64,000 nt of DNA from Macrostomum lignano (Eukaryota), in assembly GCA_002269645.1 (NCBI GenBank), contig NIVC01002468.1, positions 1-64,000 of the forward strand, written 5' to 3'. The notes under the pieces are model-generated. The model made no database searches. It saw nothing but the letters and a program-made list of their open reading frames with translations, and was not told the origin of the DNA. The position numbers were made by a program, and so were the translations under genes. Positions 351 to 58,075 of this stretch are shown here, in pieces (position 1 is the stretch's first letter; each line of letters opens with the position of its first letter).

Positions 351-412
351 CTAAAATTTGAGTAAAGCCATTAGGTTTTCTAAAAAACTGAATGACTCAT
401 CAAGTGTCTGAC

Positions 413-914
413 CTCATCATTAAAGTGTTCAGTAGTCAGTGCATCGTCGGTATTTTCTACAGTTGTTGAAAGAATGACGTCCGCGGGTTCATCGTTCTCT
501 GGCTCCGGCTTTCGCTCCGACTTTAGAAAGAATATTGTAACCGCTGCAGAAACGGGAATGACTACGAGGCCTCCCATGATGGAGGTGAAGAGAGTGTTGA
601 TTGACAGCTTGATGGGCCCGATGGAGATCGTGTCAGAAGCAGCCTGGCTTTCTTCACCTACGCCGTAGAACATGGCGTTGGAAATCATGGTCATGAACAG
701 CAGGCAGAAGCACACCCCGAAGCGCTGCAGGCGGCTGAAGTTTGTGTCTGTATCGCGCTTGAAGACGGACATCCACAGGTGGTCGTCTTGAAACTTGCGC
801 TGCAAGTTGAGCTTCACAAAGCGAGGCTGGAACGCCAGAAGCCCCTTGGTCGCCAGTTTCAGAATCACCGGCGGATCGAAGCCGACAATCGGCTCCGAGT
901 TGACAAACACGTAC
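413..914 (-). CDS. PKD1-like exon: post-PLAT region with TM2-TM3
   Basis: DHLWMSVFKRDTDTNFSRLQRFGVCFCLLFMTMISNAMFYG and a second hydrophobic segment LFTSIMGGLVVIPVSAAVTIFF. Splice phases agree with the neighbouring exons. Confidence 0.9.
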
Positions 915-985
915 CTGGCAATCATGAGCGAACAGTTACGGGCTTCATCGCTGTTTTTCGGATTGCTAAACATTTGACTACTCAC

Positions 986-1381
986 GTGGCATTGTACAGC
1001 TGGTCTGTGATGACAATCTTTCTCAGCGTCCATGGAAACACTGGGCGGTGCCTTCCAGAGTAACACTAAGCTGCATGATGTCGCCCAAATGCTTTGCGGT
1101 TGTCATGGTAAAGTGATCGATGTCACCAGATCGAAGGTTCTAACATGAACAAAGAATGTGTTGAATAATTCTATTTCCCACAGTACGATTCTACCAAAAT
1201 TAAAATTGCTCACCTCGCGAACTCCATCGGAGAGGATCCTGCAGGCTTCTATGTGGTTTCTTCCGACAATGCTCAACAACGGAGTTCCCGTTGTGCTGCA
1301 GCCCTTGTACTTGTCGGTGTACACATCCATCAGGTAGCTGAACTGCCGCTGACAGTCGTCAACGAGCGGCAAGTGTTTGAA
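986..1381 (-). CDS. PKD1-like PLAT/LH2 domain exons (1214-1381 and 986-1139), with a 1-nt frameshift in the second exon
   Basis: YLMDVYTDKYKGCSTTGTPLLSIVG, then NLRSGDIDHFTMTTAKHLGDI in one frame and PWTLRKIVITD in another. Exon 986-1139 is 154 nt, but the flanking splice phases require 155. Confidence 0.85.
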
Positions 1382-1447
1382 CTGAAAAATCAAATCGAAA
1401 GTCAATCACTTCAGCGAGACAAACAGCGAAACGAAGACTCAACTCAC

Positions 1448-2541
1448 CTTCTCCAAGTCTTTCTTGTCAACGTGGCGAAGCCACACGGCTATGGGAATGA
1501 AGATGATCCACAGCGTGACGACCGTAGCAACCACAGCCGCGCTGTCAGCCAGTTTGCCCTGCCAGTTCTCGAACAGTGTCCCGAAGTCAATAAGATTCGG
1601 CAGAACATTCAGTCCGACACCGAAGCTGCCAAACAAGTTGCTGACGAATCGAGGCTTGCTGGCAACAGAGCTGGGCTCAGGCCGGCACACATCCTCCGAC
1701 GGTGTGATCCAGACGCCAAGGCTTGAGTCCCACATGCTGCACACAAACAGAGATAGACCGAACTCGTAGGACAAGACTGGGTCTGGGCACGAGGCGGCTG
1801 TCACATCTCCGCTGGCGTCTCGATTGCAATCTGCTCGACCCACGGCAATGAAGTAGCTCTCGTTTACCGCTGCCGGCAGGTAGAAAGAGCCCTGACTCAC
1901 ATTCAGCATGCTGTCGGTGAGTGTTGGCAGGCGTCCGAGCTGTACAGATACCTTCAAGTTCTGCTTTTGGTTTAGTGGCAAGACCGTCACCTGCAGCAGC
2001 CCACTTGTCACATTGACGCTATGATAGAACCTCAGCCAGCGATCTGTGGGAGTCGCATTCACCACTATTCTGGATCCTGTTGTAGCAGGAAGAGAGAACT
2101 CAAAAGAATCCGTGGTGTCGATGGCTCTTCTAGTCCGACAGCCCTGCTTTCCAATCATAAGAACAGGTGAGCTGACACTGTTTTCGTTCTGCCAGAGATA
2201 AGGACTCGGTCGAGAGAACAAAACCTTCACTGACTCGCAGCCAGCAGTGCTGGGCAAGACTACTTCTCCAAAACTCGATTGAAAAGTGACGTTCTCAGTC
2301 CCACTGCCGTTCAATTTGAGGCCTTGAGCTGATAGCGAGTCGTCTGATATTGAGTACGTACTTGACGAGTTTAGCAGAGTGTCAGTGACGCTATCGATGG
2401 CTGCAAGGACCGTCTCCGTTACTCGCTTTACTTTGCTCTGAGCTTCCGTATCATTGTGACTGGATCCGTTCACTGACGCAGCAGAAGAGTTCACGGTGCT
2501 TTCTGAGGCTACCCAGATGTTTGATCCGGTCAAGACGATGT
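1448..2541 (-). CDS. PKD1-like exon: GAIN domain, GPS-like motif and TM1
   Basis: CSMWDSSLGVW...C...SNLFGSFGVGLNVLPNLIDF followed by the hydrophobic AVVATVVTLWIIFIPIAVW and LRHVDKKD, matching the GPS-PN.IDF-TM1-DxxD layout of the PKD1 family. Confidence 0.9.
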
Positions 2542-2617
2542 CTGAAATCGGCGAAAAGTCGAATACACGTCAGCTGTTTTGAGTGCAACCTCAAACAAAA
2601 ATGTCATGCGAGTCTTA

Positions 2618-3996
2618 CCTGGTCCGAGAAAGGCTCTTGAGTCAGCCGGGATTTTGTCGCCGATGCGGCCAAAGCTGTGACTGATTTCTGATAGCTTCTC
2701 GGCTGCACTCTCCTGAAAAAGGAATAGCAAAAAGTAAGCAATGTTCTGATTACAATTTGTACCATTAGAGCTGCTGTTTGGTTACCTGAGACTCGACTGT
2801 GACCTGATTGATTCTGTCTACAGGGATCGCGTTTTTCAAAGCATAATTCACTTGCTCAAGATCTTCAGGTGTGTCCACAGAGAAATTGGCAATTATTGAA
2901 ATCATATTTGCTCTTAGCTGGAAAGAAGTGGCAGTGGAAAGTAATAGTTTTAATGCGGAACATACATTTCAAGGAATCAGTTTATTTATGCACAATTTTC
3001 CGATGTCGTACCTCAGTCATTATGTTTTGAAAAACTGCAGTCTCCTCAGATGTAGCATTTGACCCCTCGGCGTCGTCGTTCTCAGCATTCATCACGGATG
3101 CCAGGCACACGATGGTGGTGGCAGCCGCCTGCTGGTTTCCACTTCGCAAATGCTTCTCCAAGTCGTCGTTGGATCCATCGAAAATTGCGGTCAAGTTTTC
3201 AAGCAATACGCTCGCGGGGATCGGAGGTGGATAAACCTATCAAGGGATCAACGACGCCAAAAATTATTGTCAGAATCCAATATAAGCTACTTGAGTATGG
3301 TTTACAGCATCGTCACTTACAAATACGTCAAATACAAAGGCGATCTTATCTCCGATGCTGTCAATAACGTTGATGTAAGCGTCAGACCTGAATCCATGAG
3401 AGCCAGAACCAACTGGCAGCAGAACTGGCGGTGAAATGGCTGCTGGTCCATAAAACAACAGAATGGTTCGCCGAGTTCCTTTTGGTCGAATTCGATATTC
3501 GTAGGTGAGTTTATTGGAGGTTACGTTGAACTCCTGCCAGCCCCAGCATGAGATCTGATATTCGGTGATCATCGCGTAGCCAAAGTTCGGCTGAATGGTG
3601 CAGTTGCCTCCACTGGCCGGCTTGTTAACAACAAAGATTTTGCTTACTGTGACCGGACCCTCCTGTCCGAAGCTGGATGCAGACACTTGATGAGGTACGC
3701 CACACCCAGGGTCATTGTGTTGGCCTTTCGAACCAGAGTGTTGTTGGCGAAACCTAAGCAAAATCGGATTTAGTTTTTGGTTTAAATGTTTCTTAATCCT
3801 GGGAACAGCTGTACTGCTAAAACTTACCTGAGTCTGTAACAAGTTGCAGATTGTCGAAATGATTAGCCGTCAGCTGTCTCATTGCCTAGTCAAAGGAAAG
3901 GCCCGAAAACTTGGTCCCACAATGGGATAAGCAGTCGGCCTGGTACACCAATGGCGCTGAACCGCCCACTTTCTCGGCACAGTTGCTCACGCATCT
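2618..3996 (-). CDS. PKD1-like REJ C-terminal and post-REJ exons (contain an in-frame TAG and a 1-nt frameshift)
   Basis: Exon ~3826-3996 reads CVSNCAEKVGG..CLSHC..SFD*AM (TAG at 3886-3888 where REJ has a conserved W). The next exon, from 3753, reads GFANNTLVRKANTMTLGVAYLIK and then shifts frame to VSASS..VVNKPASGGNCTIQPNFGYAMITEYQISCWGW. Confidence 0.75.
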
Positions 3997-4498
3997 AAAA
4001 ATCAAATTTAGCGCAAGCCAGTAATCAACTTTAATTTCATTGGTAGACACATTGGGGTGGCCTTGGGGGTTCCCTGTCAGCCACCCGATTCCGCTTATCG
4101 TCTAGTGTGCAGCCACCCCACTCCCGGTATGTACATTTTAACGTCAGTTTAATGTCGGTAAAAACCGATCGGCCAAAGTTATAAACTAAGATGCCAAGGT
4201 TTATTGGTGGAATTGTCGAGAGGTCAAGGCTTATGGCGGCAAATGCTAAGATATCGAGGCTTACTGAAGGTAAGGCTGAGATCTCAAGGCTTACGGGGGA
4301 ATCGCAAATATTTCAAGGCTTGAAGGAATTGCTAAGATATCGAGGCAAATAGGATACACAGTAATAATTTTCGTCTATTGGTCGCCCCGAAGGGAGGCCC
4401 AAGGCCAAGATTGCTAGTCAATCAACTTTGATCAATAGTGCAACACGATAAGAAACCATTTTATGGGCTTTACTCGACCAATAAAGCACATAACTTAC

Positions 4499-7400
4499 GA
4501 AACTCTTAAAGATGCTTGTTTTTGAGGGCTGACATAAATGTTCCAGTCAGCATTGGCTGTACGCCCGTCCTTGGTCAAAAGTGTTCGAACAATATAGATA
4601 TAGTTTGGAAGCATGTGAAAAGTGTCAAGAACCGCCGTGGCTGATTCATTCTGCTCCATGAAGATTCCAATGCCGTTGCCAAAGCAGCCAGAATATCCTT
4701 CAAGATCTTGGCTCACAGGAATGCTAATCCGAGTTTCCACATTGTCAGGAAGTGACGGCAGCTCCGCCTCCTGCAGACAAATCCAGCGAAACGCCATGCC
4801 CGTCAGATTCCCAGCCTCAACGTCCCAGTCCCGAGGCGACAGCTTCAGCCTGACAGTTTCGTTGTAGGCAGCGGAGGCCGGTGTTGACTCATTGTTGAAG
4901 CTCAGCGTCAGAGGTGTCTCCGTGATTTTGAGGTAAAACGCGAACTCTGCAGAGACCGGAGGCGTCACGGCAAACATGGATAGGTTGAGTACAATCTTGT
5001 ACAGACCATACCAGAGTGTGCGGTTGGGAACCTGCAGCAGAAATGAGTTACCGAGACTCAGGCTGACTTCAGCTCCGGCTGCATACAGAACTCGCCAGCG
5101 CCAATACGTGTTGCTTGTCTTCGTGCAGTTCAACTCCGGAAGACCCTCTACAACGATCTCTTGGGACCTCATCAGCTGCAGAGGCCTCTCGGGATCCCAC
5201 TGGGTCAGAATCCGACCAGCATGAGAAAAGTTCAGTTTTGGTTTGTCGCACATCCAGTCGAGTATAATTGCCAGAGTTTCGGCCGTGTCGTTGCTGACGT
5301 GGTTGAATGCTAGCAGAGAAGCCGAGAAGCCACCAAGACTTGGATAAACGTGAGAAAACGAAAACAACGTGTTGTTGTAACAAATTTCAGTAAAATTGAT
5401 GCCCCGAGTAGCAGAGTAGGGCTGACACAAAAATGGAATGCCAAAGCTGATTGATGTAGAGTCTCCAAAATCTACGACAAAACAGCTGTTTGTGCCGAAT
5501 CTGGTGATGTTTAAGAAGAAGAAAGTCGCGTTCGATATGAAGGCCGAGCCGTTCGTTTTGAAGCTTTCGACTATGACAGCATCGAGCACAATGTCTACAG
5601 AGATCGGAAGCGTTTGGAAGGAGATGAGGTTGGAGCAGTTCAGACTAAAGTTTTGCAATCACAAGGCAGCTCTGGGAAACGAGTGAGACAAGGCGACGTC
5701 CGCACTGAACCCAATCGTGTCGGCGTAGATATAGCTGGAGCCAAATATGTCCCAACTGAACACGCAATGCACATTGCTCAGTGAAAGCAGGGAGTTCGAC
5801 AGTCGAAAGTGCACCTCAGCAGGTGTGTACAACACGCTAGAGTTGTACTCCAGTGTCAGACCTCGAACTCTCTCCTGAACCACAACGGGACCGAGCGACA
5901 CCGTCTTGTTGCTGACGTCATTCCAGACAGACACTCGCGTAGTGAAGTTGCCGACACTTGGAAACTTCAGCTCAACAGTACCCAGGTGTCCCAAAGCTGC
6001 TATGCGGCCGTCACCAAAGTCGACGCCGACCCGTAGAGCAGATCCGGTGACTACCGAGACGGTGAAGTTTCCAGCTTCCGCTTTGACCAGGACCGTGGGA
6101 CCGGTGAATATCAGACCACTCACTGCCTCCTGACAACGCACTTTTACATTCGGAGCATGTAGAATGGACACCAAATTCCAGCAGGTTACTTGCACCGGCT
6201 CCGGTCCTTGAAGGAGACTCCTTGAACACGCGAGCGGCAGCTGAGTTGACACTTCTGATATCGAGAGTTGTGTTGATATGCTTCCGAACACGAAGCTGCA
6301 ATTTGCATTTGTTGGTAGTGGCTCAGGGTGACTCAGTGTGGCGCTCACGTTTGTGACAGACAGCTCCAGGAATGTCGGGGCTTGTACAGTCAGTGACTGG
6401 ACTGGATTCTGGACTAAGACACCGAGCGTCACGGCCTCAGATCGAGTGTGATAGTTGGCGGCGAACGCTGTCAGTTGGTAATAGCCTGGTATGTGAAAGC
6501 TCATGTTGAAAACATCTGCAGCTGCCCAGGCAAACGGATGCTGATCTTCTAAATGTACCGAGCTGCCGTTTCCAAAGTCTAGCTGATATGTCACGTGACT
6601 ACCGGTGCCAACAGAGAAAGTTAGCGAGAAGCTGCGGTTTGTAGCAACGACAGAATGGCTTGAACTGAAGTGAAAGTTTGTCACGTTCTCCTGCAGAATC
6701 ACATAGAAAGAGGCGGTGTGAACGGACAAGCGGTTCCAACAGGAGACATTCGCCACCGCGGATGGAGCATCGAGTGGGAAGATTATGAATTCGTCATGGC
6801 TAACAGTTGGCCGAAGAGTCGTTGTGATGTTAAGCTGCTGGACTCCAGGCTGCAACACGGCAGTGCAGAAGATTGGCAGATTTGACACTGCAGTGCCGCG
6901 CATCATGTCAAGGCGAAGAGTAGCGTTGAGTGGCGCTGCTGTGGGAACGTAAACCAGAAGCAGCCTGAGATAGTCGACGAGTTGAGGCGCGACCTCCACA
7001 TCTTTGAAGGATTTCCAGTCCCCTGTGCCATTGCCGATCGTGCATTGAAAGTCAAACAGGCCGACGTCTTCTTCAAATGAAAAAGAAAGTTCAGTAGAGT
7101 GAGCAAGAAAGTTGCTCGTGTGTCCAGCAGCTACCCAGTTCCAGTGCTGCTTTTGTCCGTTACTGAAGTTGGCAACCAACTGCAGACCTGAGCCTTGATG
7201 CCACGATGCAGTCACTTTAAATGTCTCATTGAGTGACAGCAAAGGCTTGGACACTTCGCATGTAGCATTGAGAAGCGGAACTTCAGAGCAGGACAGATTT
7301 CCAATGATTGAGGCGCAACCAATGTTGTTGGATAGGTCGCTTTCCGTATAGGAAGGCCCGGAGCTTTCATTGAAAACTGCACACAAACGGGTAATGTCGG

Positions 7401-8658
7401 GACAGCTTGATTCAGAGACATTGAAGATGTAGCTGCAATTTACGATGCTGAAATTCGAGAGGCCCTGACGCAGTTGGTCTGGCTGACAGAAAGCGGTCTT
7501 TGGCATCTCAAGCGCATTCAGAGAAAAACCGGATGTCAAAAACGCAACCGGCTCAAAATTTGTTCGTGGTGGTGGAACTTCAGCTACTGGCAGTCCAAGG
7601 CTTAGATGCAGTAAGTATGTGACAGTCAGGTGCACAGGGTAGCGATGAATCCATGTGCTGTTTCTCATTCTAAAGTTCACGCTGAGCAACTCTGTGTCTG
7701 CAGTAAGACTGCAGTTTCGAGGCAGTTCTGTACACGCTGCGCCGTTCTCTGGCGAAGCCATGACGAAACTACCGTTAGTAGTTCCTACGTATGTTCCAGT
7801 GCAGACATAGGGAAAAAGTTCGCAAGTGGCCAAGTCAAGATTTGTCTGCGCACTCAGCCTGACGCCAGCGGCCTCGCCAGGATGCACAGAATCTCCAGAT
7901 GTCAGGTTGGCAGGTAAACTCAAATTTAGCATTAAGCATGAGGAGGCAATGCAGCTGGTGTTCAAGCTACAGTTGCTGCGGCAGAGAAATAGGACTGGTT
8001 CCAGCTGTGGAAGTGAAATAATAATTTTTAATAATTTAAATAATCTATAACATCGCACAAAAGTATGAAATTTATCTCTTACTTGAAAGTTTGCATCCGG
8101 CAGGGTCACCGCGGCCACGTGAAAGGGACTGGATGGGCTGAGGATGAGCACTGACTCAAAAATCAGAAACTCCTGAGTTGATCGAGTAATCACCGGAGGG
8201 CTTATCAGATGAAGTGAGGCTGAGACATTCAACTCAGGCTGGCACAGCTTGTTGAAAGAGACGCAGGCTTCGTTGTTGTCCAGCTGGTAGTCGACAAACT
8301 CGGAGAAGCTGCCCGGTGCTGCGGACACGCAGACATTTGAGATCTGGTGGCAGATGCTTCCGGCAGGCAGCTTTAGTGTTGCTGTGCACACAACATCGAA
8401 TGTTTCTCCAAGATAGCGTGCAGCACTGAGGTTTCCGCTCACAGCGATCGCTGAGCTGGCGGTGAAGTTCAAGTCGCTGACTGATGAATTAAAGCGGGCG
8501 GTGAGGTCGAAGTTCGTCCTCGGAGACGGAGCGGCCGTCAAGTTTGTGGTGGCGTTGAGAACACGAATTCTGAAGCTGAACGTCAGGTTGGTCGCGATGT
8601 CCCGAACTACTGTCTGGGTAGAGACCAAACTCAGTGAGTTGACTTCGGTGTCCATCAC
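4499..8658 (-). CDS. PKD1-like large exons: Ig-like/PKD repeats and the start of REJ; in-frame TGA at 5659-5661
   Basis: ORFs 5659-8658 and 4495-5658 share a frame and are separated only by TGA. Repeated PKD motifs (YQLDFGNGS, VDFGDGR, VVDFGDST, HVYPSLGGF..AFNHVS). A stop-free 78-nt AT-rich intron (8005-8082, GTAAGA..CCACAG) lies inside the first ORF. Confidence 0.85.
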
Positions 8659-8959
8659 TGGAAAAGAAAATGAGGTTATGAATCACGCATTCTATCACTT
8701 GTAACGAAGCAAAAGCTTGCAGCAATTTGTCCTGAGCCACTTACAAAGTTTGCACAAAGCTTTCCGCATCACGTAGCCAGACTTGCACAAGCACGTCGTA
8801 TTCAACGGTTCTCCGGGTGACAGACACACCGTGTACTTTGCCAGAGTGCAGCTTGCATCCGCGAAGCAAGCATCGTTAATATTTTTAGCTGGAAAAATCG
8901 AGATTAGTTGTAGCTCCTTTGATAATTGTACAAGTTAGGGTAGCAAAAATCAGACTTAC

Positions 8960-9529
8960 GTAAGTGATAATAGGATTTTTGAATGATTCTCATTTGAACC
9001 TGAGCCCCTGACGCGCTGCTCAACGACCATCTGATGGAGTCGGATCGGTTTGAGCCGGCGCTCCCTGTGAGCTTCGTGGCGGGACAGTCGCTGCTGAACC
9101 ACCAGCCGCTGCCACCAGCAGTTGCGCACATCTTTGCGGTGCCGAAGTCGAACGTAGAGAAGGTCGACATGTTCTGAGCTTCGAACAGCTGCCCGTCACC
9201 GAAGTCGGAGGTACAGTCTTCCAACCGGAGCTGAAAGTCCAGAAACGACGGTGCCACTTTGACCTCCCGGCACTCCACATATCGAAAGCTTCCGTCGGAG
9301 ATCCACGCGTCGATCCGCATGGAGAAGTTGACCATGAGTGTCAGATCGCTGAGTGACTGCAGCCCGATCCAAACGAGGTTGTCCATCTCGAAACCAGCCT
9401 GATACTGCGCTATAGAGAAGTTCATCGAGCTGTTCAGGTTGAAGTTTTGATAAATGATCATCCAGTCGTGGTAGCAGTTGATTTTCTTGCTGTCAATGGC
9501 GGTCTCATTGCGACCCACGCATGTCGGTA
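8960..9529 (-). CDS. Fibrinogen C-terminal-like (FReD) domain exon of the PKD1-like gene
   Basis: CYHDWMIIYQ..NF..QYQAGF...VWIGLQSLSDLT..SMRID..FQLRL..FSTFD..CA..GSGWWFSSDCPATKLTG follows FReD consensus spacing. Confidence 0.75.
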
Positions 9530-9619
9530 CTGGAAAAAGCATGTCGAAAGTCATTTAGCACTTTTTTACGCCAAAGAGCAGTTTCGAAAACTATAAATAA
9601 AGAATATATGCCGAAGCAG

Positions 9620-11472: not shown

Positions 11473-12427
11473 AACTCACGGAGATTCACTCAATTAGCCA
11501 TTAGCACAAACTCACGGAGATTCACCCAATTAGCCATTAGCACAAACTCTCACGGAGATCACTCAATTAGCCATTAGCACAAACTCACGGAGATTCACCC
11601 AATTAGCCATTAGCACAAACTCACGGAGATCACTCAATTAGCCATTAGCACAAACTCACGGAGATTCACTCAATTAGCCATTAGCACAAACTCACGGAGA
11701 TTCACCCAATTAGCCATTAGCACAAACTCACGGAGATTCACCCAATTAGCCATTAGCACAAACTCACGGAGATTCACCCAATTAGCCATTAGCACAAACT
11801 CACGGAGATCACTCAATTAGCCATTAGCACAAACTCACGGAGATTCACTCAATTAGCCATTAGCACAAACTCACGGAGATTCACTCAATTAGCCATTAGC
11901 ACAAACTCACGGAGATTCACTCAATTAGCCATTAGCACAAACTCACGGAGATTCACCCAATTAGCCATTAGCACAAACTCACGGAGATCACTCAATTAGC
12001 CATTAGCACAAACTCACGGAGATTCACCCAATTAGCCATTAGCACAAACTCACGGAGATCACTCAATTAGCCATTAGCACAAACTCACGGAGATTCACCC
12101 AATTAGCCATTAGCACAAACTCACGGAGATCACTCAATTAGCCATTAGCACAAACTCACGGAGATTCACCCAATTAGCCATTAGCACAAACTCACGGAGA
12201 TTCACTCAATTAGCCATTAGCACAAACTCACGGAGATTCACCCAATTAGCCATTAGCACAAACTCACGGAGATTCACCCAATTAGCCATTAGCACAAACT
12301 CACGGAGATTCACTCAATTAGCCATTAGCACAAACTCACGGAGATTCACCCAATTAGCCATTAGCACAAACTCACGGAGATTCACTCAATTAGCCATTAG
12401 CACAAACTCACGGAGATTCACTCAATT
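11473..12427. repeat. Intronic minisatellite, 35-36 bp unit (CACAAACTCACGGAGATTCACYCAATTAGCCATTAG), about 26-27 copies
   Basis: Direct head-to-tail repetition with no spacers. Variants differ by C/T and a 1-nt deletion. Confidence 0.97.
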
Positions 12428-12457
12428 TATAGCTACTATCAGTGAAACTGTACTTAC

Positions 12458-12997
12458 CTACAGGAAACCCGACGACTCCAACTGTCAGTAGAGCGTCTCC
12501 ATAGAAACTGACAGGTGTCAGGACCAGGAACTTTGCCACTACTGGATCCGGCAGATCTTCCACAAAACTCACATTGGAAATGACTGAACCCAGCAATTCT
12601 TTGTCTGGAGTGCCTGCCCTGGGCACTTCCTGAAGCTGGGAGTCGTCATGAGTTCCATAGTGCAGTCTGTACTGATTCAAACATGATCCGAGCTGATCGA
12701 GCTGAAACAGAAGTTATCCAAGATATGATTCGATTGCATCTAACTGTAGAATGTTGTATGTGAATGGTTTCAGTTTAGCTCAAACTCTCACAGGTTCAAT
12801 TTTCCAAAAATGGCTTTGAAAATCTGTAGCTCAGACTCCGTAGTCATCTTTGCTAGCCGTCCTCTTCCGTTCCAAGCAAGAGACTTGCAGATCTTGTGAG
12901 CAGTTTGCCTCGTTGCGATTGTATGAGGCTGGCTGGAGTCCGAGAATGGAGCCCAGTAGCAGAGTTGGCCATGACGAAAGGTGTTGATGGGACAGTC
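12458..12997 (-). CDS. PKD1-like exons: N-terminal half of a C-type lectin domain (~12790-12997) and C-terminal half of an FA58C domain (~12458-12700)
   Basis: DCPINTFRHGQLCYW..AHKICKSLAWNGRGRLAKM; QYRLHYG..LPDPVVAKFLVLTPVSFYGDALLTVGVVGFP. Confidence 0.65.
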
Positions 12998-13943
12998 TGC
13001 GGCCAGGGGTCCCAGTAATGCAGTTACGATTGTGTACTACATTTTTGTACTTTTGTATCGCTGAATCCCTGGCCTGCGAGGCACGTTACGGTAGGGTGTA
13101 CAGGGTACACTGGGTACAGTACAAGGACATGGGTCTTTGCTCGCTCCAACGTGACTGAAGCCCTCTCAGGACGCCGGGACACCAACCACCTGATGCTAGT
13201 TTCATAACACACAGGCTGGCGTAAAATCAAAGCGATTAGGGTGTGACTACATGTGCGTAGCCGAATCTGAGTCGGAATCAGAGCACACGGACCCTTAGCT
13301 GCCACCTTGGCAACCGAAAGAAAAAAGACGGATGAGCCCACTCAGCGTACTTGGCGGCAGGAACTAATACAAGCAGCCAGGCACAAACCTCCATAGGCTT
13401 CCCTTTTGATTCTGTTCTCGCTTCATATTGTTATTATTCAGCTTGTCCTGGAGTATTGGCGTGGGTGCCTGCAGACTAGTGGAGCGGGCGACCAAAAAGC
13501 TAGACAAAGTCAGATATAAAAATCGCACACACGCCCAGCAGAGCGCGGCGCGACTACGAGCTACCTAAAAGTCAGCCCGCGCGGGGAAACCATTCCACCA
13601 CACACCCCACCAGCCGGCCGTTGGGCTTTACCCCAAACCAGCCAATCAGGGTGAGAGAGGAAACTCGTCAAGCCAGCCACTTGGCACAGCTAACCAGCCG
13701 CAGCGGCTCTCAGTGCCAGAGAGAGCTAAAGTCGAAAACAAAATGAGAAACATGGGTGGGGGAGGGGCAAAGACAAAGAGCTCTTGCACTGCAAAAAAGT
13801 TCAAAAGGCAACACTAAGTTTATCACTACTACGAGCATTGAAAGCAGTTTTAAAACAGTAGTCTGGGAAAGGGGCTTTCTAGGACAAAAATTATCGCAGC
13901 CTCCATAATGCACAAACGATTAACTTTATTATTCCTAAAGAGA

Positions 13944-14548
13944 ATAATCACATCCCGAAGGATGTGAAGCTAACCGGAATCGAGCTGTATTTGGAAGTCA
14001 TTGAGCCAAAGACCGCACTAAAAGCGGATTATCTCAAGGCAATAGAGAAGGAAATTGATGTTGCATACACGGCCTACATGTGTCGAGATGAGCGAAACGA
14101 AACTAGAACAAACATCTGCATTAAAGAGGGATCATGCTGCAATCCAAGGTATATTATTATTAACATGAGAAACCCAAATAGCATTATACGCTACATGCAT
14201 GGAGACGTGCGGTCCATTCAGCATGAAATCAGTGATAATCTTTACCCTGCACTGCCACAAAATGGAGATTTCAGTCAGAACAAGATTAGCAAATTTTACA
14301 GCGAGTTGGTCGACTTGGCTGTGAAAGGGAACAATGGAATTGCTATCACCGCTCTTCAATATGGAACTCTATATCCAATGTTTGGCGCTGATGTGTCTGC
14401 CAGACAAATGCCTACTGATAACAGCCCTGTGAATATCGTGACTAACATTGAGAGGGCTGTCGCAACACCCGTGGACCTGTACATTATCTATGCATTTGAG
14501 AGGAAGGTGAAGCTTAACATGATCAACAATTCATCCAGTAAAGTTTAA
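13944..14548 (+). pseudogene. 5'-truncated Polinton/adintovirus-type double jelly-roll major capsid protein (C-terminal ~200 aa)
   Basis: PRYIII..HGDVRSIQHEISDNLYPALPQNGDFSQNKISKFYSEL..YPMFGADVS..VNIVTNIE..LYIIYAFERKV follows the pattern I recall for Polinton MCP C-termini (PRYVII..HCNLRNVKLYLNSEYYP..NF..N.Y..LY..Y). The frame starts directly at the left TIR junction. Confidence 0.75.
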
Positions 14549-14583
14549 AGATATTATTCATTTATTATTTTGTGGGTGAAAAA

Positions 14584-15460
14584 ATGGAAGCGATTGCTGA
14601 AAGACTAAATAATATTATTTCTCGCTCTAAGGAGAGTATTCCTATTACAATAACTGGGCGAATTAATGACTCAAACGGGATATTTGTTGAAAAATTAGAG
14701 CAGGTGATTCGCCTGGATCCAGGTGCTAAGTACCATGTCTATCTTAACGGCTTCACTTGTTGGTCAAACGTTCCCAATGTGACGGCAGCAAATAATAAGT
14801 TTTATTACAAATGGAAAGGTGCAGCAGCAGAACCTGTGGTATTCCCTGTGAGCACGCAAAGTGTGGATACCTACAATTACTTTCTAGAAAACGTCTTTAC
14901 TAAAAAAGGCCATTTTGAGACACCTGATCTGATTAAGCCAGAACTGTTCCCTGTCAAACTAGCCTATGATCTCACTGTAATGAGAGTGGTCATGCGAGTT
15001 TCACAAAGATGCGGAGGTTGAGTTTAAAGATGACACTTGGTATAGGGAATTGGGATTCGAGAAGAAAGTTTATAAGGCAGAATCCGCGGCGCGGATCGCC
15101 ACTCAAACGTCGGGGGCCGTTAGCATGGCCCGGGAAAGTGTAAGCGGTTTGTTCTTAGCACCCAATATTGCAGACATTGTAAAGGGTCTGCATTATCTCT
15201 TGAATGTGATTGAATATTCTAATCAGAAGTAATCTCAGTCTTGATTGGGTATTTAAGGGAAAGCGAACAAATATTTTGTACATCTCTATTCTGTAGCTGG
15301 AGGACAGATGCTGGTAGAGAAACCAAATCCAGTGAAAAGAGTTGTATTGAGTAATAAGGAGATTCACGAGATTGTGCTACAGTTTGAGACTGAAGATGGG
15401 GTGGGTGTTGATTTCAACGGTGAAGAGTTTGTATTGACGTTGATCATTGAGAGAATGTGA
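14584..15460 (+). pseudogene. Polinton/adintovirus-type minor capsid (penton) protein, frameshifted
   Basis: IRLDPGAKYHVYLNGFTCWSNVPNVTAANNKFYY; after a +1 shift near 15001, DTWYRELGF; after further shifts, GGQMLVEKPNPV..IHEIVLQFETEDGVGVDFNGEEFVLTLIIERM*. These motifs match the penton N-terminal, LGF and C-terminal consensus as I recall it. Confidence 0.75.
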
Positions 15461-15708
15461 GAAAAAAAATACAATTGCTTAATGATTTCTGCAAAGTTAT
15501 AGTCGCTGTCGTAGTCTTTTACGTAGGTCACTCCATACTTAAGAAACCAGTATCTTTGGAGAGCTAGATTAATATTAGGGACGTTGATATCAACGCCGGG
15601 CAAATATTTTCTCATGTACTCACTGCATTCTAGTTTGCATCGGTACTTACTCTTGTAATAAGGCTCGTGCCTTTTGTCAAAAGAACCCGGAGAGACGATT
15701 GGAAGCAT
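15461..15708 (-). CDS. Small orphan ORF (~80 aa) of the Maverick, convergent with the penton
   Basis: ATG at 15708: MLPIVSPGSFDKRHEPYYKSKYRCKLECSEYMRKYLPGVDINVPNINLALQRYWFLKYGVTYVKDYDSDYNFAEIIKQLY. No family recognised and the true end is uncertain. Confidence 0.35.
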
Positions 15709-16436
15709 TTTTATTGAGAATTTAATTTTTTTCGGAGGATGAGCACCCTGGGTTTTGGGATTGGCGCTAATTTGATTGTCTTGGCACACTTTTTGCAAGG
15801 CTGGGAATATAGAGACTGATATTTTGTGCTAGACTGATGGGGCTGCGTGAATTTTTGATAATAAATGTAGAGACAGATTTTTGTGAGGGGCAGGTACCCT
15901 TTTTTCCTGATCTCTTTGGGAATAATAAAGTTAATTGTTTGTGTATTATGGAGGCTGCGATAATTTTTGTCCTAGAAAGCCCGTTTCCCATACTACTTAA
16001 AACACATAAGAGGAGGCAGTTGAATATTCAAAATGAATATATTACCAGGAATTGGGCAGCCACGAATTTCGAATCTCGTAGTGACTTGATCTGCATCAGA
16101 AAAGTTAATGAAAATCATTCTAGTCCGTAACATTGTCGGCAGATATTGCTCAAAACCGAGACTCAAGTTGAACAGCTGGAATAATTCAAGTGGGTGAAAT
16201 TATTTTTCAAAATATGCGTTTTTGGAAACTATTAATACATTTTATTTAATAAAAATTTCGTGGGTCTGTTGCTACGACTGAGTCGATTCGTTAGGTTAGA
16301 TCAGTCTTGTATCGCTGAAGTGGCTCCGATCAATATCCTAGGGCAACCACTAACCAAACTATAGTCACCCATTGTACACTGCTAAAATGTACAGAAGTAT
16401 AAAACCTTATATGAGCTATTAATAGACATCTCACAT

Positions 16437-19400
16437 GCGCTGAACCGTGAAGTGTGACTGGACGGACGCTTTCATCTACAGGGCTTGCATAGGATACGAC
16501 GAATGTGGCGTTCTCCGACAGGCCGTTTAGTCTCCACCCTGTGAGCAAGTGCGCAGTTGCCAGCTGAACCTGCACTGTAGTTGGCGATGTTTGCGTGATT
16601 GTCAACACAGCGCTGCTGACCCAGTCGCAATCTGAAGTGAAGTTTGGCGATTAGCGTTTGAATTTCAGTTCTGATTGATTTTCCTACGGCAACCGCGTCT
16701 CACCTTCAGGATAGCCCAGCAGTTCTAGTCTCAGCAGTCTCTTCCTCACAAATCTGATTGGCAGAATTCTGACTACTCTGGCAAGAAACGGCTTAGTGAA
16801 GGACATCCGGCTGGCCATTTCGTTGCCTGTGAGACCGGTTCTGATGATCTGTAATTGACGAACATTTTGTGCTCTAAAATACCTATTTATCTTTTCAATT
16901 GTACTTCCAAGTTGAACAGTACTATTTTTAACGTCAATCTCACATGGCTTAGTCCTCCAGCAGAGTACTCAGTATAATTGAGCATTTCTGTCGAGCTGTT
17001 TCCATACCGAATTCGGGCGGTCGTGACGTACCCGTCAAAGCCTCCAGTTGCGAAGTCCCAGACTCCGCTGCCCTGCCACACAATCCCGGTGATGCGGTGG
17101 ATTACATCCAGCTGAATCTCCAAGAAGCTGCCGTCAGTGGCTGCTGCAAGTTAGAAATGCCTCATTTTAGCCTCAACTATCAACTGCAGCACTGCTCACA
17201 GCTGGGATCAATCAGCTCAATCAACTCAATCATCTCAATCAGCTGCCAAGCGACTCACAGTCAGAGAAGACGGCAGCGGGCGGCAGGCCGACCTCCTGGC
17301 CGCGATTCAGCGCTGCCATGAGCGGAGTCGGGTGCCGAAATGCATCCTGCGGACTGGCGGCTGTCGCATCGCCGACTGCCAGCTGATTGGCCATAATGCG
17401 ACCGTCCTCGAGTCCGACATTTGAGTTGATGAAGTAGTAGGCAGCTGGAAATAAAAGAACTAGTTGACGTTAGAGTGACGCTGTTTACGAACTCCTGTAA
17501 ACTCAGTTAAGTTTTTGTCGGAGTAAAGATTTGATGTAATCAGCTCACCAATGCTGGGATAGCCGTAGACTTCGAACTCGCAGAGTGAGAGAGTTCCCAG
17601 CGATGAATGCTTTCGCAAGCCAGCGACTGAAGCAACCTGTTGGTTATTATAGATCACCTCTAAGACTTGTACTTCTCGTTGAGAGTGAAAAAGCTGCCAT
17701 TTATTTTCTGTTTAAAATGACGGAATCGCTACCTTATTGACGTTAATCTTCCACAAATGGGACTTCATGAAGCCGCCAGTCCAAGTTTCCAATATCGTGA
17801 CTGCTGTCGCGTCCCACGGAGCGGCCGTGCTGTTGCTGATGTAAACACTGGCTGACTGCATGTCCTCGGATAAGGCCTGGACTTTGTCTGTCGGATCAGG
17901 GGGTAAATAGGGAGTCCAATAAGTGCGATTGATTTGTTTAAGGCGACACAGAAAATCTTCTGCAGCTCTGAGGACTCACCGAGTGTCTCGACCATGTCGA
18001 CTATAAAGATGAAGACGATTCGCTGCGCCACTCCGAGATCCACGAACCAGTACAGATAAGGATCGGCGGTGCCGGAGTGCTGGAAGCAACGGCCTGACAG
18101 AGCGTGGCTCTCGAAGTTCCCGTCGACAGGCAGTCCTGTTGCTGCGTCGGAATTCGATCCGGTGGGCCGGTAGCGGGACAGCAGAATCGGGTTGGCGATG
18201 GCGTCTGGATATGGCGCATTCGGAACGGCAGGATTGAGGCTTACAAACGCACTACTCGGACCTCAAAAAGCTAAACAATGCATGTCAATGTCCCAATATG
18301 CAACTGTTTTTTACTTACTGGCGGAGTCGCTGCAGCCGAGCAGCTGCCACTTGAACTCGAGTTTCCGCGTCCAGCTCAGCGGATACAGCCGGAAGCCCAA
18401 CGCGACGGGCTCGGGCAGCAAGCGGTGCCGAGACTCGTGCTGAGCCACGAAGACTCCGGTCAAAATCTGTGGAAAGAATTGAGGCTGTCTGTGTGAGTAA
18501 TTGTTCAATGAACTCAATGGGGAAGCGCATGCAACTCACCCAGCCGTCTCGGTGCAGGCTCCAGTACTTGCCCTCTTCGCTCACCGCGGCCCTGAATGAC
18601 GTCACGTAGTTAGAGTTGTCTCCGGCCTGGTTGACGATGGCGCCGCCGCCGATGGCCACCGCGAACAGCCGGCAGCGTCGTGGAAGAATCGCCTGCAGAG
18701 TTGGCGAGTTCCTCGACCGTTAGTCGGCTGGTGCGAAATTGGACTTCAAATTACTAGGCGGAGCAAGCTGCACCTCCAAATGGTACTTACCTGGACAAAG
18801 ACTGCGGTAGTGGCTGGATTGTCGCTCAGGTACGCAAGCAGGCTGGGCGAGAACGCACCCATGCTGCTGTTGTCCAGCTCATGGAACACCAGGTGCGGCG
18901 CCATCTTGCCAGCAGTGTAGGAGTCTGAATCGACAACGAACCGCTTCTTCCGCCTTCTGTAGGGCTGAATGAGTCCGGAGTAGCCGATCTTGTTCACCTG
19001 GATGCCGTAGACTGAGTCCCAGCAGCTGCCCAGCGACTGGTTATTAGAGAACACCCTGATAATGGTGAGGTTGCTGCCAGCGCTTTTCGACTGCTGCCAG
19101 GTGACGCTGATGTTGGCGAAATCGTCCGTGTCGAACACCACAGGGTCGGAGAAATCCGAATCCAGCGATGTGAGCTCAAATTCTGCATAGCTGTAGTCCT
19201 TGTGCTCAACGGTGCAGCCGCTCAGCCTGATGTGGCTGCTGTTTCCCGTCAGCTTGACGATTTAACGTTTCTAGACAAGGCAGAAGTTTTGAGACCATTA
19301 ATAATTTCCTGACCTATTTGAGTTTTATTGCAAGAGACTTTCTCACGTTTCTCATGGCTTTGTCGTATCCGTACTGATCCGTGAGCCAAATTTTTAACGT

Positions 19401-23056: not shown

Positions 23057-23107
23057 AAAATTTAATTCGCCGCGGGACGATACTGCAGTCACCAAATCTT
23101 CATCCCG

Positions 23108-26100
23108 ATGTCTTCCGGACTCGACTTCCGACTGGGGGAGATGCCGCTGTGCTACCCCGATGTCGAACAGTATTTCAAGCGCCTCGGTTTTTACATTAGC
23201 GCAACGGAAAAGAATGACCAGAGCAAAGCCGTTCTACTTGCTACTTGTGGAGATGCCGCATTTTCACTGATTGAGACACTTGTGCAGCCAGAAGACATTT
23301 TAAACGATACAAAGTGTACGTTCGATTTCATCAAAGAAGCGGTACTGAGCCACTTGAAACCCAAGCGCCTTCTTCACTACGACAGACATCTGCTACATAC
23401 CATGGTCTAAATACAGGGTGAGTCGGTGACAAAGTTTTTGGAGAGACTGAAGACACAGGCCAACAAATGCGAATTCGGCAACCTGCGAGAAGAGTTAATT
23501 CTTTCTCAGTATATTTTCGGACTGGCTGATAATTCTCTGAATCAAAAATTACTAGTGAAGGAAAAGCTGGATCTAGAGACTGCGGTTAAGGATAGTCTCT
23601 TATCGGAGTCCGTATCTCAAGCCACTGATTTGAGCAAAACCGTCGCAGCAGTGCAGAAAACCACTCACAAGAAGACCGGCAGCAACCAAAAGTATCCAAC
23701 GGTATCCAGGCCAATGCCAACAACGCCGAATCATTCTAAGTCTAGCTGCCATTCCTGTGGTAACCCGGGTCATCTTAGAAATACCTGCAAGTTCCGTAAT
23801 GCGACATGTCACAAGTGCGGAAAAACCGGGCACATTGCCAGAGCATGCAGGTCCAACATCGGTGGCAGCAAGAAAGTCACGTACGCGGAAGTTGAAGCAA
23901 CCGACGCTGATCCACCTGATTCAGCTGTGTACTCGGTGATCAAGGCTACTCCATGCGACGAACTCTGGAAAATAGTCTGCACGATCGGTGATTCCACAGT
24001 CCATATGTGCGTCGACTCTGGTAGTCAGGTAACAATTTTGCCAGTAACCATCGTAGAGCAAGCCGGATTGCACATGGTTGACGCGGACATTCGATCACTC
24101 AAAGTTTTCGGGGGAGCTTCAGTTTCCGTACGAGGCATGGCTAAGGACGTCACAATTGAGCTGAGAAACGGCAAAACGGCATGCGGAGACATATATGTCG
24201 GGGACCCATCTAGTCAAGCCATTTTGGGAATAAATGTTATTCGTGCCTTCAACCTATTGACGGTAGACGAATTTCTGTGCCATCCAGTGCAGTGTGATGA
24301 AAATTCAAGATTCCAGGCCAGCTTTCGCCTGAAGGACGGGGCCTCTACCGATGGAATGTGCTTTCCTGCCAGATCCCTTCCGTTCTCAATTAAAACTTTG
24401 GTTGAACTGGAGCTGAAAAGACTGGAAAGTGCAGGTATCATCTACCCAGTTCACTCGCCTAAGGTATCGTGCCCTATTGTTCCTGTGTTGAAACCAGAAG
24501 GATCAAAGAGACCCATTAGACTGTGTGGAGACTATTCAGTCACTCTCAACAGACTGATAGACCGAGATCGATATCGACTGCCAACTTTGAAATAAATCCT
24601 TCAAAAGATCCCAAATTCGAAAGTGTATTCAGTGCTCGACCTCGAAGACGCATTCTTGCAGATTCCCCTAACGCCAGAAAGTCTAGATCTTACGTGTATA
24701 TCCACCCACGTAGGACATTTTGCCTTCCGCAAGTTACAATTTGGGATATCGGCAGCACCACTGATATTTCAGGAAGTTATGGATATCTTGCTCAAAGGAA
24801 TACCAGGCACTGCTTCTTATCAGGACGACATCATTCTAGGCACTGAAATAGTGGAGTAGCATCGACAGATCCTGGTGCAAGTCAAGGAAAAACTGAAAAA
24901 GCATGGATTCAAGATCAATGAGCGTAAGACTCAGGAGTGCAAGAAAGAAGTCACATTTCTGGGATTTCTCCTCCGAGATGGGAAACTTTTGCCTGATCCT
25001 GCAAGAGTGGAAGCTCTATCCAACTTGTCAGAGCCAAAAGACCGGGATCAATTGAGAAGTGCTATATGCACCTTAAGACACTACGGGATTTTTTGTCGGA
25101 ACTTTTCTTTGATCGCCAAGCCGCTCTATTACCTCCTAAAGAAAGGGGTTCAGTGGAAATGGACTGTCGTTCACTCAAGTGCGTTCTCCCAACTGAAAGC
25201 TGCTGTAACGGAAGGTCGAATCGTTTCTTATGATATAAAAAGGCCGTTGTTTCTAACCTGCGACGCTTCTCAGAGTGGAGTCGGATTTGTGCTGTCCCAC
25301 GACACGAACCAAAAAGAAGTTGTATGGCTGGGAAGCAGAGTTTTGACCAAGGCTGAGGCCAACTACGCCAACATTGCGCGGGAGGCTCTTGCAATTATCG
25401 AGGGTGTAAAATATTTTCATCAATTTCTGGCAGGCCGTCATTTTACAATCATCTCTGATCACAGACCTTTGCAGTACATCTTCTCTACAACGAAAGTTCC
25501 TGACCGAGTTTCTGCGAGACTCCAGAGATGGGCATTGCTGCTCAGATCCTATGACTACACTGTCACTTACTCAAAAGGAGACACCATGCTCGCAGCAGAT
25601 ACTCTGTCCAGAATTCCTTCAACAAACGCTTCTACTTCGTTTTCAAATTTTGATGTCAATCTGCTGGAGGTAAACTCTCTCGTAGAATTTTCTTCTTCTG
25701 GGACAATTCTTCGGCGTGTCGCCAACACCAGAGACCCTGAAATTGATACCATCAAGAAGTTTGTTACTCAAGGTTGGCCAAGCTACATTTCTAAACAGCT
25801 GCTTCCGTACACCAAATCCAAGGCGGAATACTCCATTCAAAACGGGATTCTGTTCAAAGGGATCCGAATCGTGCCTCCAAAGTCCATGCGCAGAGAAATT
25901 CTTCAAATTCTTCACGAGAATCATCCGGGCATTGTGCGCATGATCAGACTAGCTCGAGAGTACTTCTGGTGGCCTTACATTGACGCCCAGATCAATAGCT
26001 TCGTTCAAAGGTGTCCTTCCTGCCAACTAAATTCGAGAAAGCGAACAAATGCAAATCTGCATTCATGGGAGGATGCAAAGTTTTTCTTCGAACGTGTTCA

Positions 26101-26899
26101 TCTGGACATAGCATATTTCAAGGAGAAACACTTCTTGGTTCTCATCGACTCCTTCTCTCGGTGGATTGATGTACATCAGCTGTCAAATCTCACAGCCAAC
26201 TCTCTTATTCCAGCATGCAGACGAACATTTAAGTACATGGGACTTCCAACGTGCATTGTGACTGACAATGAAACCAATTTTCGATCAAAAGAGTTCGCAG
26301 AATTTCTCAAGAAGAATCTAATTAACCATGTCCTAACACCACCTGGTCATCACCAGTCAAATGGGATTGTGGAAAGAGCTATCCAAGAGTTGAATGCGAC
26401 TCTGAAGCAGAACAGTAATGACATAGGTTCCGAATGTGAGAAGGTGTTGATATCATTCTGCCTTTCGAAGAACACTACACCGAATTCCGAAGGAGCGATT
26501 CCTGCTGCACAACTGTTTATGCGACGCCCAAGAACGCGCCTCACTGCAACCTTTACAGAATGGGACAAACCGCTAACTACCCCAATTCCTGTCTACATCA
26601 ACGTAGAAGGAAAGTCAGACAAGGTCCCAGAAGAAATCCAAGGACTTCATGGATCAAATACCTATTTGGAAAGCAAAGGACGGGTTGTCCATGCATCTGA
26701 TGCAACGCCAAGGTCTACAGAGAACTCACAAGAGATTACCTCGCCTAGACCTGCCCATGTTGGCAGCAGCAAGGAGAAGGAAATGGAGACTGCGACTCCT
26801 GCTGAAGTGGAGACAACCAGCGATCAAAGTCCCGAGTACCAAGTTTCTCGTCGAAGTCAGAGGCTCCGAAAAGCCCCTGATCGGCTGACCTATTCCTGA
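23108..26899 (+). pseudogene. Gypsy gag-pol in a single frame with three premature stops
   Basis: Two CCHC knuckles (CHSCGNPGHLRNTC, CHKCGKTGHIARAC), protease VDSGS, RT YQDD, RNase H DAS..SDHRPL, and integrase HHCC plus D(HLD)-D(TDN)-E(VER). In-frame stops at 23408-23410, 24593-24595 and 24857-24859; no frameshift. Confidence 0.95.
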
Positions 26900-36600: not shown

Positions 36601-39600
36601 GGCACTTCTATCGAAAAATAACTTAGTCCCTTTGTCCAAGAGGATTGGGAAACCACAGATATCATCCATCATATCCATTAATACTCAAATCCATATTGAT
36701 TGCTACTTTAACTCTAAATTAGATTATAGACTTTTCCTTGGACTTACTGAAAAGGGGTTGTAGTTTCGTGGTTAGAGCGTCGGACTCACTACTTGAAGGT
36801 CGGGGGTTCGATTCCCGAATCCCACTGGAACAATTTGTGTCCTTGAGCAAGACACTCAACTCTGCATTGCTTCAGTCCACCCAGCTGTAAAATGGGTGCC
36901 AGCATTAGCTGGGGTAATTGAGGGTTTGTGTGGCGACCCCCCCCCCAGTCTTGGACTGAACAGCCGTATGCAGTCTTCAGATCTGCCGCGCAATAGCTGC
37001 GGCTGAGCTGTCGGTTGCACATCTGCCCATTAAGGCAGGTGTAATCAGTTATTAGTATTAATATTGAACTTTCTAAAACATCCTTCTAAAAATCTAGTAC
37101 ATACCAGAATAACTAGACTGCTACTGAACCAAGCTTTCGAGGTTTTGCTTCGTTGACCCTCTGGTCCATTATAGCTTTAAGTACATGTAGATTCGGGTTA
37201 CAGCACCCACGGAGTGTTGTAAGCATACTGAAGTAGTAAGCAGAAGGTATTAAACTATTTAAATTACGGTGGTGTGATGAAGCTGCGTTCCACGGCAGTC
37301 TTGGCGTCCAACAGGCGGCCCCTGACGCCGCCCCAGGTGTGCTCGGAGCAGAACTGGTTGGCAGCGGTCCAGGTGACTCGGTTTTCCACCGGGTACCAGC
37401 AGCTGTGCATCGATGCGATCCAGCCGTCAGGACAGACTAGCAAAATGAGTATGACTTTTCAAGTAACCACGAACAGTAACATCAGAATCTTTAGCTGGAA
37501 GAAAACATAAAAAACAGAACTAACCATTAACTTTGCAGCCTTTCACGGAGTCAACGGTTATTTCTTCTGATGCATCGACGAAGTGAAACTTTATACTCAG
37601 CGGCGTCAGGAAAAACGGCATAATGAAGGTCTCGTTAGTGTAGGTGACTGGGAACTGGACAGGAGGGATTCAACTAAACGATTGTCGTATGCCCGGAGTC
37701 TTGTAATTGAATCAATTTTAGTCCGAAGAAGATCCATAAATATGTTTATCATTTTTAGTAGACCTCTATGATTTTTGAAAAATGCCTTGTTTATAATATA
37801 AAATTAATGTCTGCAAGAGATTTGGGCCACCACAGCATGGCACACGGTCTCACAACTAAGTCGATTCTGCCTGCGAGCGTATTCTGCTAACAGAAAAGCG
37901 CGCAGATTCTAGATGTACAGTTGTGTATTGACTTTCTAACCGTCAGGCATGTAAAATCTCTGTGTCTTGGTGGTCGGCCTTCGGACTTCCGACGATTAGG
38001 GTTAGGTAGGGTTTAGGTTAGGTCTTTAGGTTATGGATAGGGTCTGCTGTCAAATTGCGGCAGATAACTGTCGTAGACCCTGATTGAACAGAACTCCAAC
38101 TTATGCCCCTCCTTTTGCGCATGGCGTTACGAGTATTACTTTGCCGGCTATGAAAGCTTTTAAAAGTTGACAGCTTCCATAAACTTCAGCTCACCGTCCA
38201 TAAGCTGTCATTCCAGGCGTGCGTCAGATTAACAAAGTCTTCGCCAGCAACCAGCTGGTAGGACAGCCAAAATCTGCTGTTTGCTGGCAGGCTGCCCATT
38301 GTGAAAGCGGTTACATAGTGGAGTCGAGTAAAGTTCAGCTGCACCAGAATCTCCGAGCCGCTACTCAGGGGCGCTGTTATCGAGTAGTCCGAGCTGTCGA
38401 TCAGCGGACAAGCTGAGGGACAGTGCACGTTATTCACTTTATGGAACAATATCGAAGTTTTTCATGAATAATAAAATGAATATGCACGATTTGAAATTAT
38501 TCAAGCAATAGTTTTACTCTTGAAGTAACTAAATATTTGCAGGAGGGCTGCTGCCGGCACCTCTGGCGCAACGCCCTCTCGGCGACAGCGTCCCACAGCC
38601 GGCGCTGAGACAATTCTGCTCATTCCGCCGACTTCTGAGCACACGCAAGTGCGTCATACACACGCTCACACGGGGTGTACAGCACGGCCCTTTTAATTTC
38701 TAATCGTCAGGCATGTGCACTCTCTGTGCCTTAAGGGCTGGCCCTAATGGAAAGTGAATCACACGACAACGCCTGGACCAATTTTTCGTGGAATCGAACC
38801 AGGAGTCGTAGAGCAAAAATCAGGCAGGTTTACCACTAAGCCCTCTACTTATGTAATCTTAGCATGCTACTACGCTCATAATAGTAGTCATTCACAATGG
38901 GATGCTAAATTCTGTGTAATTTTAAAATTCAAGCTGCATTTGTACTGTATGTCAAAGGCATGTCTTCAGTGGAAAAAGGCAATGAATATTAGAAAAGAAT
39001 ATAATAGAATAGAATAGAATAGAATATAATAGAATAGAATAGAATAGAATATAATAGAATAGAATAGAATAGAATAGAATAGAATAGAATAGAATAGAAT
39101 AGAATAGAATAGAATAGAATAGAATAGAATAGAATAGAATAGAATAGAATAGAATAGAATAGAATAGAATAGAATAGAATAGAATAGAATAGAATAGAAT
39201 AGAATAGAATAGAATAGAATAGAATAGAATAGAATAGAATAGAATAGAATAGAATAGAATAGAATAGAATATAATAGAATAGAATAGAATAGAATGGAAT
39301 AGAATAGAATAGAATAGAATAGAATAGAATAGAATAGAATAGAATAGAATAGAATAAAATGGAATAGAATAGAATAGAATGGAATAGAATAGAATAGAAA
39401 TTCAGACGTACCGTTTGGACTAGGATAGCCGGCCACGTCAAGCTGAAGAAGGCACCGACTTGACCAGCCTCTTGGCTCAAAATAAACCAATTGAGTTTCA
39501 ATCGGGCCATTGAGCGGCACGAGACACGGATAATTCTTGGCATCTGGGCACGATACGTAGTACAGGATCTGAGGGATGCGATGTCAAGAAATATATCAAT

Positions 39601-50632: not shown

Positions 50633-50886
50633 AAAAAAAGCAAGTCTATTTTTTTCAAGCCAATATTTATCAAATATCTCGCTAGAAATGTGATAACACT
50701 GGCGCTGCTTTATGCTTTCATATTGATGAAAGCTATCTGTCCAATCGAATTTCAGTAGCAAACGGATTTTCAGGCTATCTTTGAGCCCAACCTGTAGTTG
50801 GTCGGGGTGAAACGGCGTTAAAACTATTTTATCAGACGTACCAGTTGTCAATGCGATCAGCAATGCACTGGAAAATGAGACATAAA

Positions 50887-57957: not shown

Positions 57958-57984
57958 TAGAGAGATATGCCAGAGAGAGAGAGG

Positions 57985-58058
<74 letters not shown>

Positions 58059-58075
58059 GAGAGAGAGAAGAGAGG
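57958..58075. repeat. (GA)n microsatellite
   Basis: Directly visible; a shorter (GA)n lies near 59133-59157. Confidence 0.97.

Follow-up and report, generated by a model that had tools for sequence, protein, structure and literature searches.

A 2.1-kb Maverick/Polinton derivative with remnants of capsid genes in Macrostomum lignano

The element, its target site and its surroundings

The stretch of Macrostomum lignano DNA analyzed here (64 kb in full length, called the window) holds a short element at positions 13857-15997 (2141 nt). The element starts with AGTAGT at 13857 and finishes with ACTACT at 15997. Each end lies in a terminal inverted repeat (TIR) of 87 nt, the left one, with the (AGT)2 end and possibly shortened by deletion, at 13857-13943 on the plus strand and the right one, with the (ACT)2 end, at 15911-15997 on the minus strand. 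The two arms differ at five positions (nt 7, 15, 54, 62, and 80), and the window contains the terminal 14-mer two times, where 0.11 occurrences would be expected. Flank comparison and the empty site define a 6-bp target-site duplication (TSD), TAAAAC, at 13851-13856 and 15998-16003; the chance of such an exact 6-mer repeat is about 4e-4. Ends, TIRs, and TSD had been reported in the first-pass annotation, and both the sequence and the empty site confirm them. Self-comparison of the 64 kb gave no match to the element elsewhere in the window. The interior consists, as described before, of the C-terminal half of a major capsid protein (MCP) gene, a broken penton-like gene, and one small open reading frame (ORF) on the minus strand. 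The claim that polymerase, integrase, ATPase, and protease are missing is borne out as well, since the listed parts fill all 2141 nt.

Mavericks/Polintons are recognized by ends of the type (AGT)2//(ACT)2 or (AG)3//(CT)3 and by 6-bp TSDs, and the element has both, with an empty site in three of the four sequencing runs compared. Because of the ends and the 6-bp TSD, a Maverick is favored over a polinton-like virus, a type that would carry a helicase or a tyrosine recombinase instead of the pPolB/integrase pair. Autonomous Mavericks carry pPolB, an integrase, an ATPase, and a protease in about 13-25 kb, none of which is present in the fully accounted 2141 nt. The element is a Maverick derivative, not an autonomous member.

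Several other features lie in the window, and they give it the look of an invertebrate animal genome. A large polycystin-1-like gene with REJ, PKD, and fibrinogen-C domains (Pfam) occupies 380-9554 on the minus strand, and none of six more ORFs on this strand, between 10658 and 22659, gave a Pfam match. An LTR retrotransposon gag-pol region, with reverse transcriptase, RNase H, and integrase split across several frames, lies at 23066-26899 on the plus strand. At least five ligand-gated ion channel ORFs are found at 44186-63770 on the plus strand; four of them have 422-449 codons without introns, and one is confirmed by Pfam. A Tc1/IS630-type transposase fragment (HTH, DDE_3) sits between the ion channel genes at 49422-50228 on the minus strand. 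Tandem arrays at 12114-12491 and 38966-41000 (a unit of about 36 nt and a simple pentanucleotide-like repeat) give spurious ORFs.

Contigs of four runs (X1, X9, X15, and X17), out of 19 listed, were compared with positions 13400-16500 at 85% likeness. Three of them, X1, X15, and X17, which come from three studies, contain an empty site, seen as a joint from 13849 to 15997 that skips 2147 nt, i.e., the element plus one TSD. Chance TIRs and TSDs, or an assembly artifact, were considered and are ruled out by this site. The depth of the empty site compared to that of the exact right end was 149.6/175.2 in X1, 26.1/23.8 in X15, and 21.6/22.1 in X17, giving a share of the filled allele of 0.48-0.54. 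Because three runs of three studies contain the empty site at a depth close to that of the filled allele, the insertion and its TSD are real. The two depths sum to 325, 50, and 44, which is inside the range of the flank bins (320-403, 45-116, and 31-84, respectively) or slightly over it. The element is therefore present on about half of the chromosome copies. The ratio of filled to empty alleles was about 1:1 in these runs, whose studies date from 2015, 2017, and 2024; this suggests either fixed heterozygosity or a duplicated chromosome. The fourth run, X9, carries another organism label and has no coverage of the flanks. It covers 15 of 30 bins, in the interior only, at a depth of about 3-5; carry-over of a high-copy repeat might account for this, and X9 is for that reason not counted as evidence of transfer.

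Remnants of capsid genes

ORF1 (13949-14548, plus strand) is the C-terminal half of a double jelly-roll MCP gene, the MCP type of Mavericks/Polintons, and is present in this half only. It has no start of its own: the first in-frame Met comes only at 14078, and the N-terminal half is missing. Among 31 phmmer matches, the closest relative is P0001 (423 aa), with 66% identity over residues 228-422, so that ORF1 begins at residue 228 of this protein. The fragment itself had no Pfam match, and an alignment of the MCPs gave no sequence match against the PDB. Of its 31 relatives 16 were scanned, and 13 of these passed PF21738 (Pfam DJR-like_dom). The structure model of P0001 (pLDDT 81.6) matches capsid proteins of Sputnik, mavirus, iridovirus, and PBCV-1 (best E value 1.4e-15, TM 0.59), with E values of 1e-15 to 2e-14 for the MCPs of Sputnik and mavirus. 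In an Atlas feature search, ORF1 gave double jelly-roll clusters at 0.96-0.97, a recognition below the reliable mark. Read against the strands of the P0001 model, ORF1 would correspond to the second jelly roll in full, preceded by the last strand of the first. Identity to P0001, PF21738 in the relatives, and the model thus support the earlier MCP-like call. The annotation had also held that the capsid was recognizable only by its motif pattern; this was too narrow, as the MCP family is found by profile search via the relatives too. Another relative, P0003, shows 91% identity to ORF1 over 44 residues and is itself an internally deleted MCP.

ORF2 (14584-15460, plus strand) is a penton (minor capsid) gene, and it is broken. 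It had been called frameshifted, and a frame change is indeed seen near 15000, but there is more than one break, with three in-frame stops at 15230-15256 as well. Over the first 145 residues, identity to nine intact relatives (258-332 aa) is 52-62%, and these proteins can be aligned to 14584-15457 when two frames are used. None of the nine was above the Pfam cutoff, and their alignment gave no sequence match against the PDB; against a 252-aa ORF of the metagenomic locus L001 it gave an hhalign probability of 99.4%. The structure model of one relative, P0040, is weak (pLDDT 55.3). Searched against the PDB, its top six rows are mavirus penton (best E value 4e-4, four chains at an E value of ≤0.001), with adenovirus pentons next, and in BFVD minor capsid proteins lead (E value 2e-7, 27 at ≤0.001); its best Z score is 7.5, below the safe range, and none reaches 8. 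The penton-like assignment is therefore supported by intact relatives whose low-confidence model matches pentons, the Maverick/Polinton penton being present as a broken gene. At 15075-15140, ORF2 contains an in-frame GC-rich stretch of about 20-30 codons that is absent from most relatives, and P0047 has an insertion there too. As depth is high over this stretch, it belongs to the abundant family discussed below.

ORF3 (15364-15708, minus strand, 114 codons) has no assigned function. No homologue was found in Pfam, in PHROGs, or in protein searches at near or longer lengths, and no likeness was seen to the last ORF of L001. Its part from about 15465 to 15690 is common to the abundant family. 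For five pieces of the window, none was above the Pfam cutoff and PHROGs gave nothing at an E value of <0.04. The right subterminal region (15709-15910) is low copy and has weak internal repeats: 15806-15828 is similar to 15864-15885, and 15837-15857 resembles TIR nt 29-50 (E values, 0.16 and 0.57). The latter repeat is a hint that the parental TIR was longer than 87 nt. An X17 contig (depth 4.75) joins 15426 to 15909, near the inner edge of the TIR, the sequence in between not being given; this hints in the opposite direction, at about 87-89 nt as the natural TIR unit, and counts against a longer TIR.

The element had been said to have kept its capsid genes. Capsid sequence is present, but this wording is overstated, because both genes are incomplete or broken and the pattern of differences looks neutral. 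The difference table covers 40 of 104 rows, of which 21 fall inside the element; leaving out one that is outside any ORF, the 20 listed coding differences are distributed over codon positions 1, 2, and 3 as 6, 7, and 7 (p 1.0 versus one third). Without a third-position bias among these 20, the differences look as expected without selection. Retained capsid function is ruled out by the missing start, the broken frames, and this neutral pattern.

Copy number, related copies and origin

Depth in X1, X15, and X17 rises far above that of the flanks over the interior, from about 13960 to 15690. Relative to the filled allele, the median interior bins stand at 823-, 703-, and 106-fold depth. Because overlapping contigs inflate summed depth, these values are not copy numbers; we take the interior to be present in tens of copies or more. 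A single X17 interior contig has a depth of 1275, about 58 times that of the filled allele. Relative to the filled allele, the depth of 13968-15690 spreads about sevenfold between runs, which may be an artifact of contig overlap or real copy number variation. Small read shares in the runs are not taken to indicate expression. Long interior pieces show 3/260, 9/418, 8/235, and 8/150 differences from the window; the copies are 95-99% alike, and the TIR mismatch of 5/87 agrees with the range from 3/260 to 8/150. The related family that had been predicted for the same organism is thus there, and it is abundant. We infer that it is full length, with polymerase and integrase. A full-length parent, pPolB, or integrase was not found in the searches, where viral_contigs showed no related loci and metagenome_contigs no penton locus, and the TIR motif had no match in viral_contigs.

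The ends behave differently from the interior. A contig matching the right end exactly (15764-15943, 0 differences) is present at single-haplotype depth in all three covering runs, and therefore the exact element is a single copy. MITE-like families usually have many near-identical copies, and a high-copy MITE is ruled out by this right-end contig. The element could still be one member of a small, older nonautonomous family with a common junction, mobilized in trans. Two or three right-end relatives, about 10% diverged and at single-haplotype depth (records 4, 5, 13, and 22; joint 13939 to 15904), reach from ORF3 into the subterminal region, and these, together with the X17 contig joining 15426 to 15909, are what such a family would leave. 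The single-haplotype depth of the exact end speaks against it, as do TIR bins at just 3-8 times the filled depth (compared to the interior medians of 106-823 times) and the fact that no common left junction was seen, no contig crossing 13944-13967 among the 31 of 3570 pieces listed. We therefore regard a small family as quite improbable.

The abundant interior family apparently lacks these ends at ≥85% likeness, although this may partly reflect short terminal contigs dropping out of the comparison. An abundant interior without these ends is left unexplained by simple deletion of a typical family member. A chimera, in which the ends of a rare Maverick lineage recombined onto the capsid module of an abundant lineage, would account for an interior 95-99% like the abundant copies next to ends and a subterminal region that are low copy at the 85% threshold, and module exchange between adintovirus lineages is reported (PMC8502044). 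Noncoding parts differ among subfamilies anyway, though, as seen from the MCP-penton spacer bin, where depth drops about fivefold in X1, and terminal contigs that are short or divergent may be missing from the comparison. The chimera is the least likely of the origins weighed here. The combination of the two ideas, a rare Maverick end type that captured the abundant capsid module and persists as a small, helper-dependent 2-kb family, is given about as little weight as the small family.

A join at 13943/13944 had been proposed, and the junction does lie there; rather than a clean join, it is a zone (13944-13967) with a perfect hairpin (8-bp stem, 4-nt loop) at 13948-13967. This hairpin has a z score of -4.7 (0/200 shuffles) and is the only perfect one of ≥8 bp in the element, compared to 8 in the 64-kb window (post hoc chance, about 0.004). 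Other family copies carry private deletions at about single-haplotype depth, with joints 14703 to 14743, 14883 to 14942, and 14903 to 15290. Because of these and of the internally deleted P0003, deletion is considered common in the family. The deletion could have occurred during replication of a free Maverick, by a template switch at the hairpin, after which the 2.1-kb defective molecule would have integrated once via the integrase of a helper. The frequent interior deletions in other copies weigh against this, and hairpin-linked deletions can arise in the chromosome too. The perfect hairpin at the junction and the presence of both ends with an exact TSD are in its favor, and so is the reported apparent mobility of polintons lacking pPolB (10.1101/2025.02.07.637071). 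On balance, we find this origin unlikely, while ranking it above the small family and the chimera.

With a probability of roughly 55%, our best explanation is that the element is the dead remnant of one Maverick/Polinton that integrated here, after which a single deletion removed most of its interior. A longer parent with pPolB, integrase, and ATPase would have been inserted at a TAAAAC site by a retroviral-type integrase, giving the 6-bp duplication. One large deletion after insertion would have joined TIR nt 87 to the middle of the MCP gene; the hairpin may have promoted it by stalling replication or may have been made during repair. Neutral decay of a few percent would have followed. This copy would make no particle and would not have multiplied in its 2.1-kb form, and the capsid pieces would owe their survival to a position beside the right end and not to any use. 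Of the two origins offered in the first-pass annotation, an in situ deletion or a MITE-like or defective-interfering family, a one-off deletion is thus favored, and the family is disfavored because the exact right end is single copy and the abundant relatives appear to lack these ends at ≥85%.

A single decayed copy is ordinary, because most Maverick loci are defective. The value of the element is as a pointer to an abundant, young Maverick-like family, with copies 95-99% alike and a distant capsid lineage, and it comes with a verified empty allele. If the ends of the family truly differ, or if the junction recurs, this would bear on the recognition of Maverick ends in trans and on module swapping. 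Severalfold variation of the abundant lineage between samples, if true, would be in line with active amplification or with free virus genomes in this animal.

Comparison with known systems

The closest known systems are the animal Mavericks/Polintons (polintoviruses, adintoviruses) and their defective copies. According to the vertebrate survey, (AGT)2//(ACT)2 is the commonest end motif, TSDs are 6 bp, TIRs measure 46-1447 bp, intact elements measure 12.7-24.6 kb, and 96% of the loci are degraded (PMC8097293); a second source puts the size at 13-25 kb and the TIRs at 100-1500 bp (10.1101/2023.08.22.554363). The element resembles the defective copies in its ends, its 6-bp TSD, a TIR length within 46-1447 bp, a double jelly-roll MCP with a penton, and its stops and frameshifts. 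Unlike Mavericks described there, it is 2.1 kb long, lacks pPolB, integrase, ATPase, and protease, and has a halved MCP. The comparison also drew on PMC6431247 and PMC11131425. In the literature covered, no description of the capsid family or of a comparable 2-kb element was found; supplements may list the family.

The capsid lineage is distant, the nearest protein being 66% identical and the next full-length relatives at most 36%. The metagenomic relatives (P0001, P0002, and P0039 to P0047), with MCPs 66% and 36% identical and pentons 52-62% identical over the first half, are intact, unlike the broken genes of the element. L001 (26-4829), a distant relative, encodes an A32 ATPase with a long C-terminal extension, the homologous 252-aa penton, a 136-aa ORF, an MCP, and a fifth ORF; its penton ORF lies between the ATPase gene and a gene 88% identical to the MCP relative P0012. 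The A32 ATPase was the only replication or packaging gene of the Maverick set recognized in it. The fifth ORF had no Pfam match and looks protease-like. The gene order in L001 is ATPase, penton, small ORF, MCP, and fifth ORF, compared to MCP, penton, and an opposing ORF in the element.

Nonautonomous Polinton families, reportedly covered in Repbase and by Kapitonov and Jurka in 2006, are said to be short, TIR bounded, and multicopy, with 6-bp TSDs. The element is like them in its short, TIR-bounded form and its TSD and unlike them in that its exact end is single copy. In the anole, nonautonomous Polintons are reported to be apparently absent (PMC3014272). The butterfly polintons without pPolB (10.1101/2025.02.07.637071), seemingly still mobile, and Tlr1 (PMC5499653) are likewise bounded by TIRs and without pPolB, and they would need help in trans. 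They are long and have intact virion genes; the element, by contrast, is short, none of its genes is intact, and no sign of amplification is seen. The element works like a Maverick and derives from one, and it lacks the many copies that would mark a MITE-like family.
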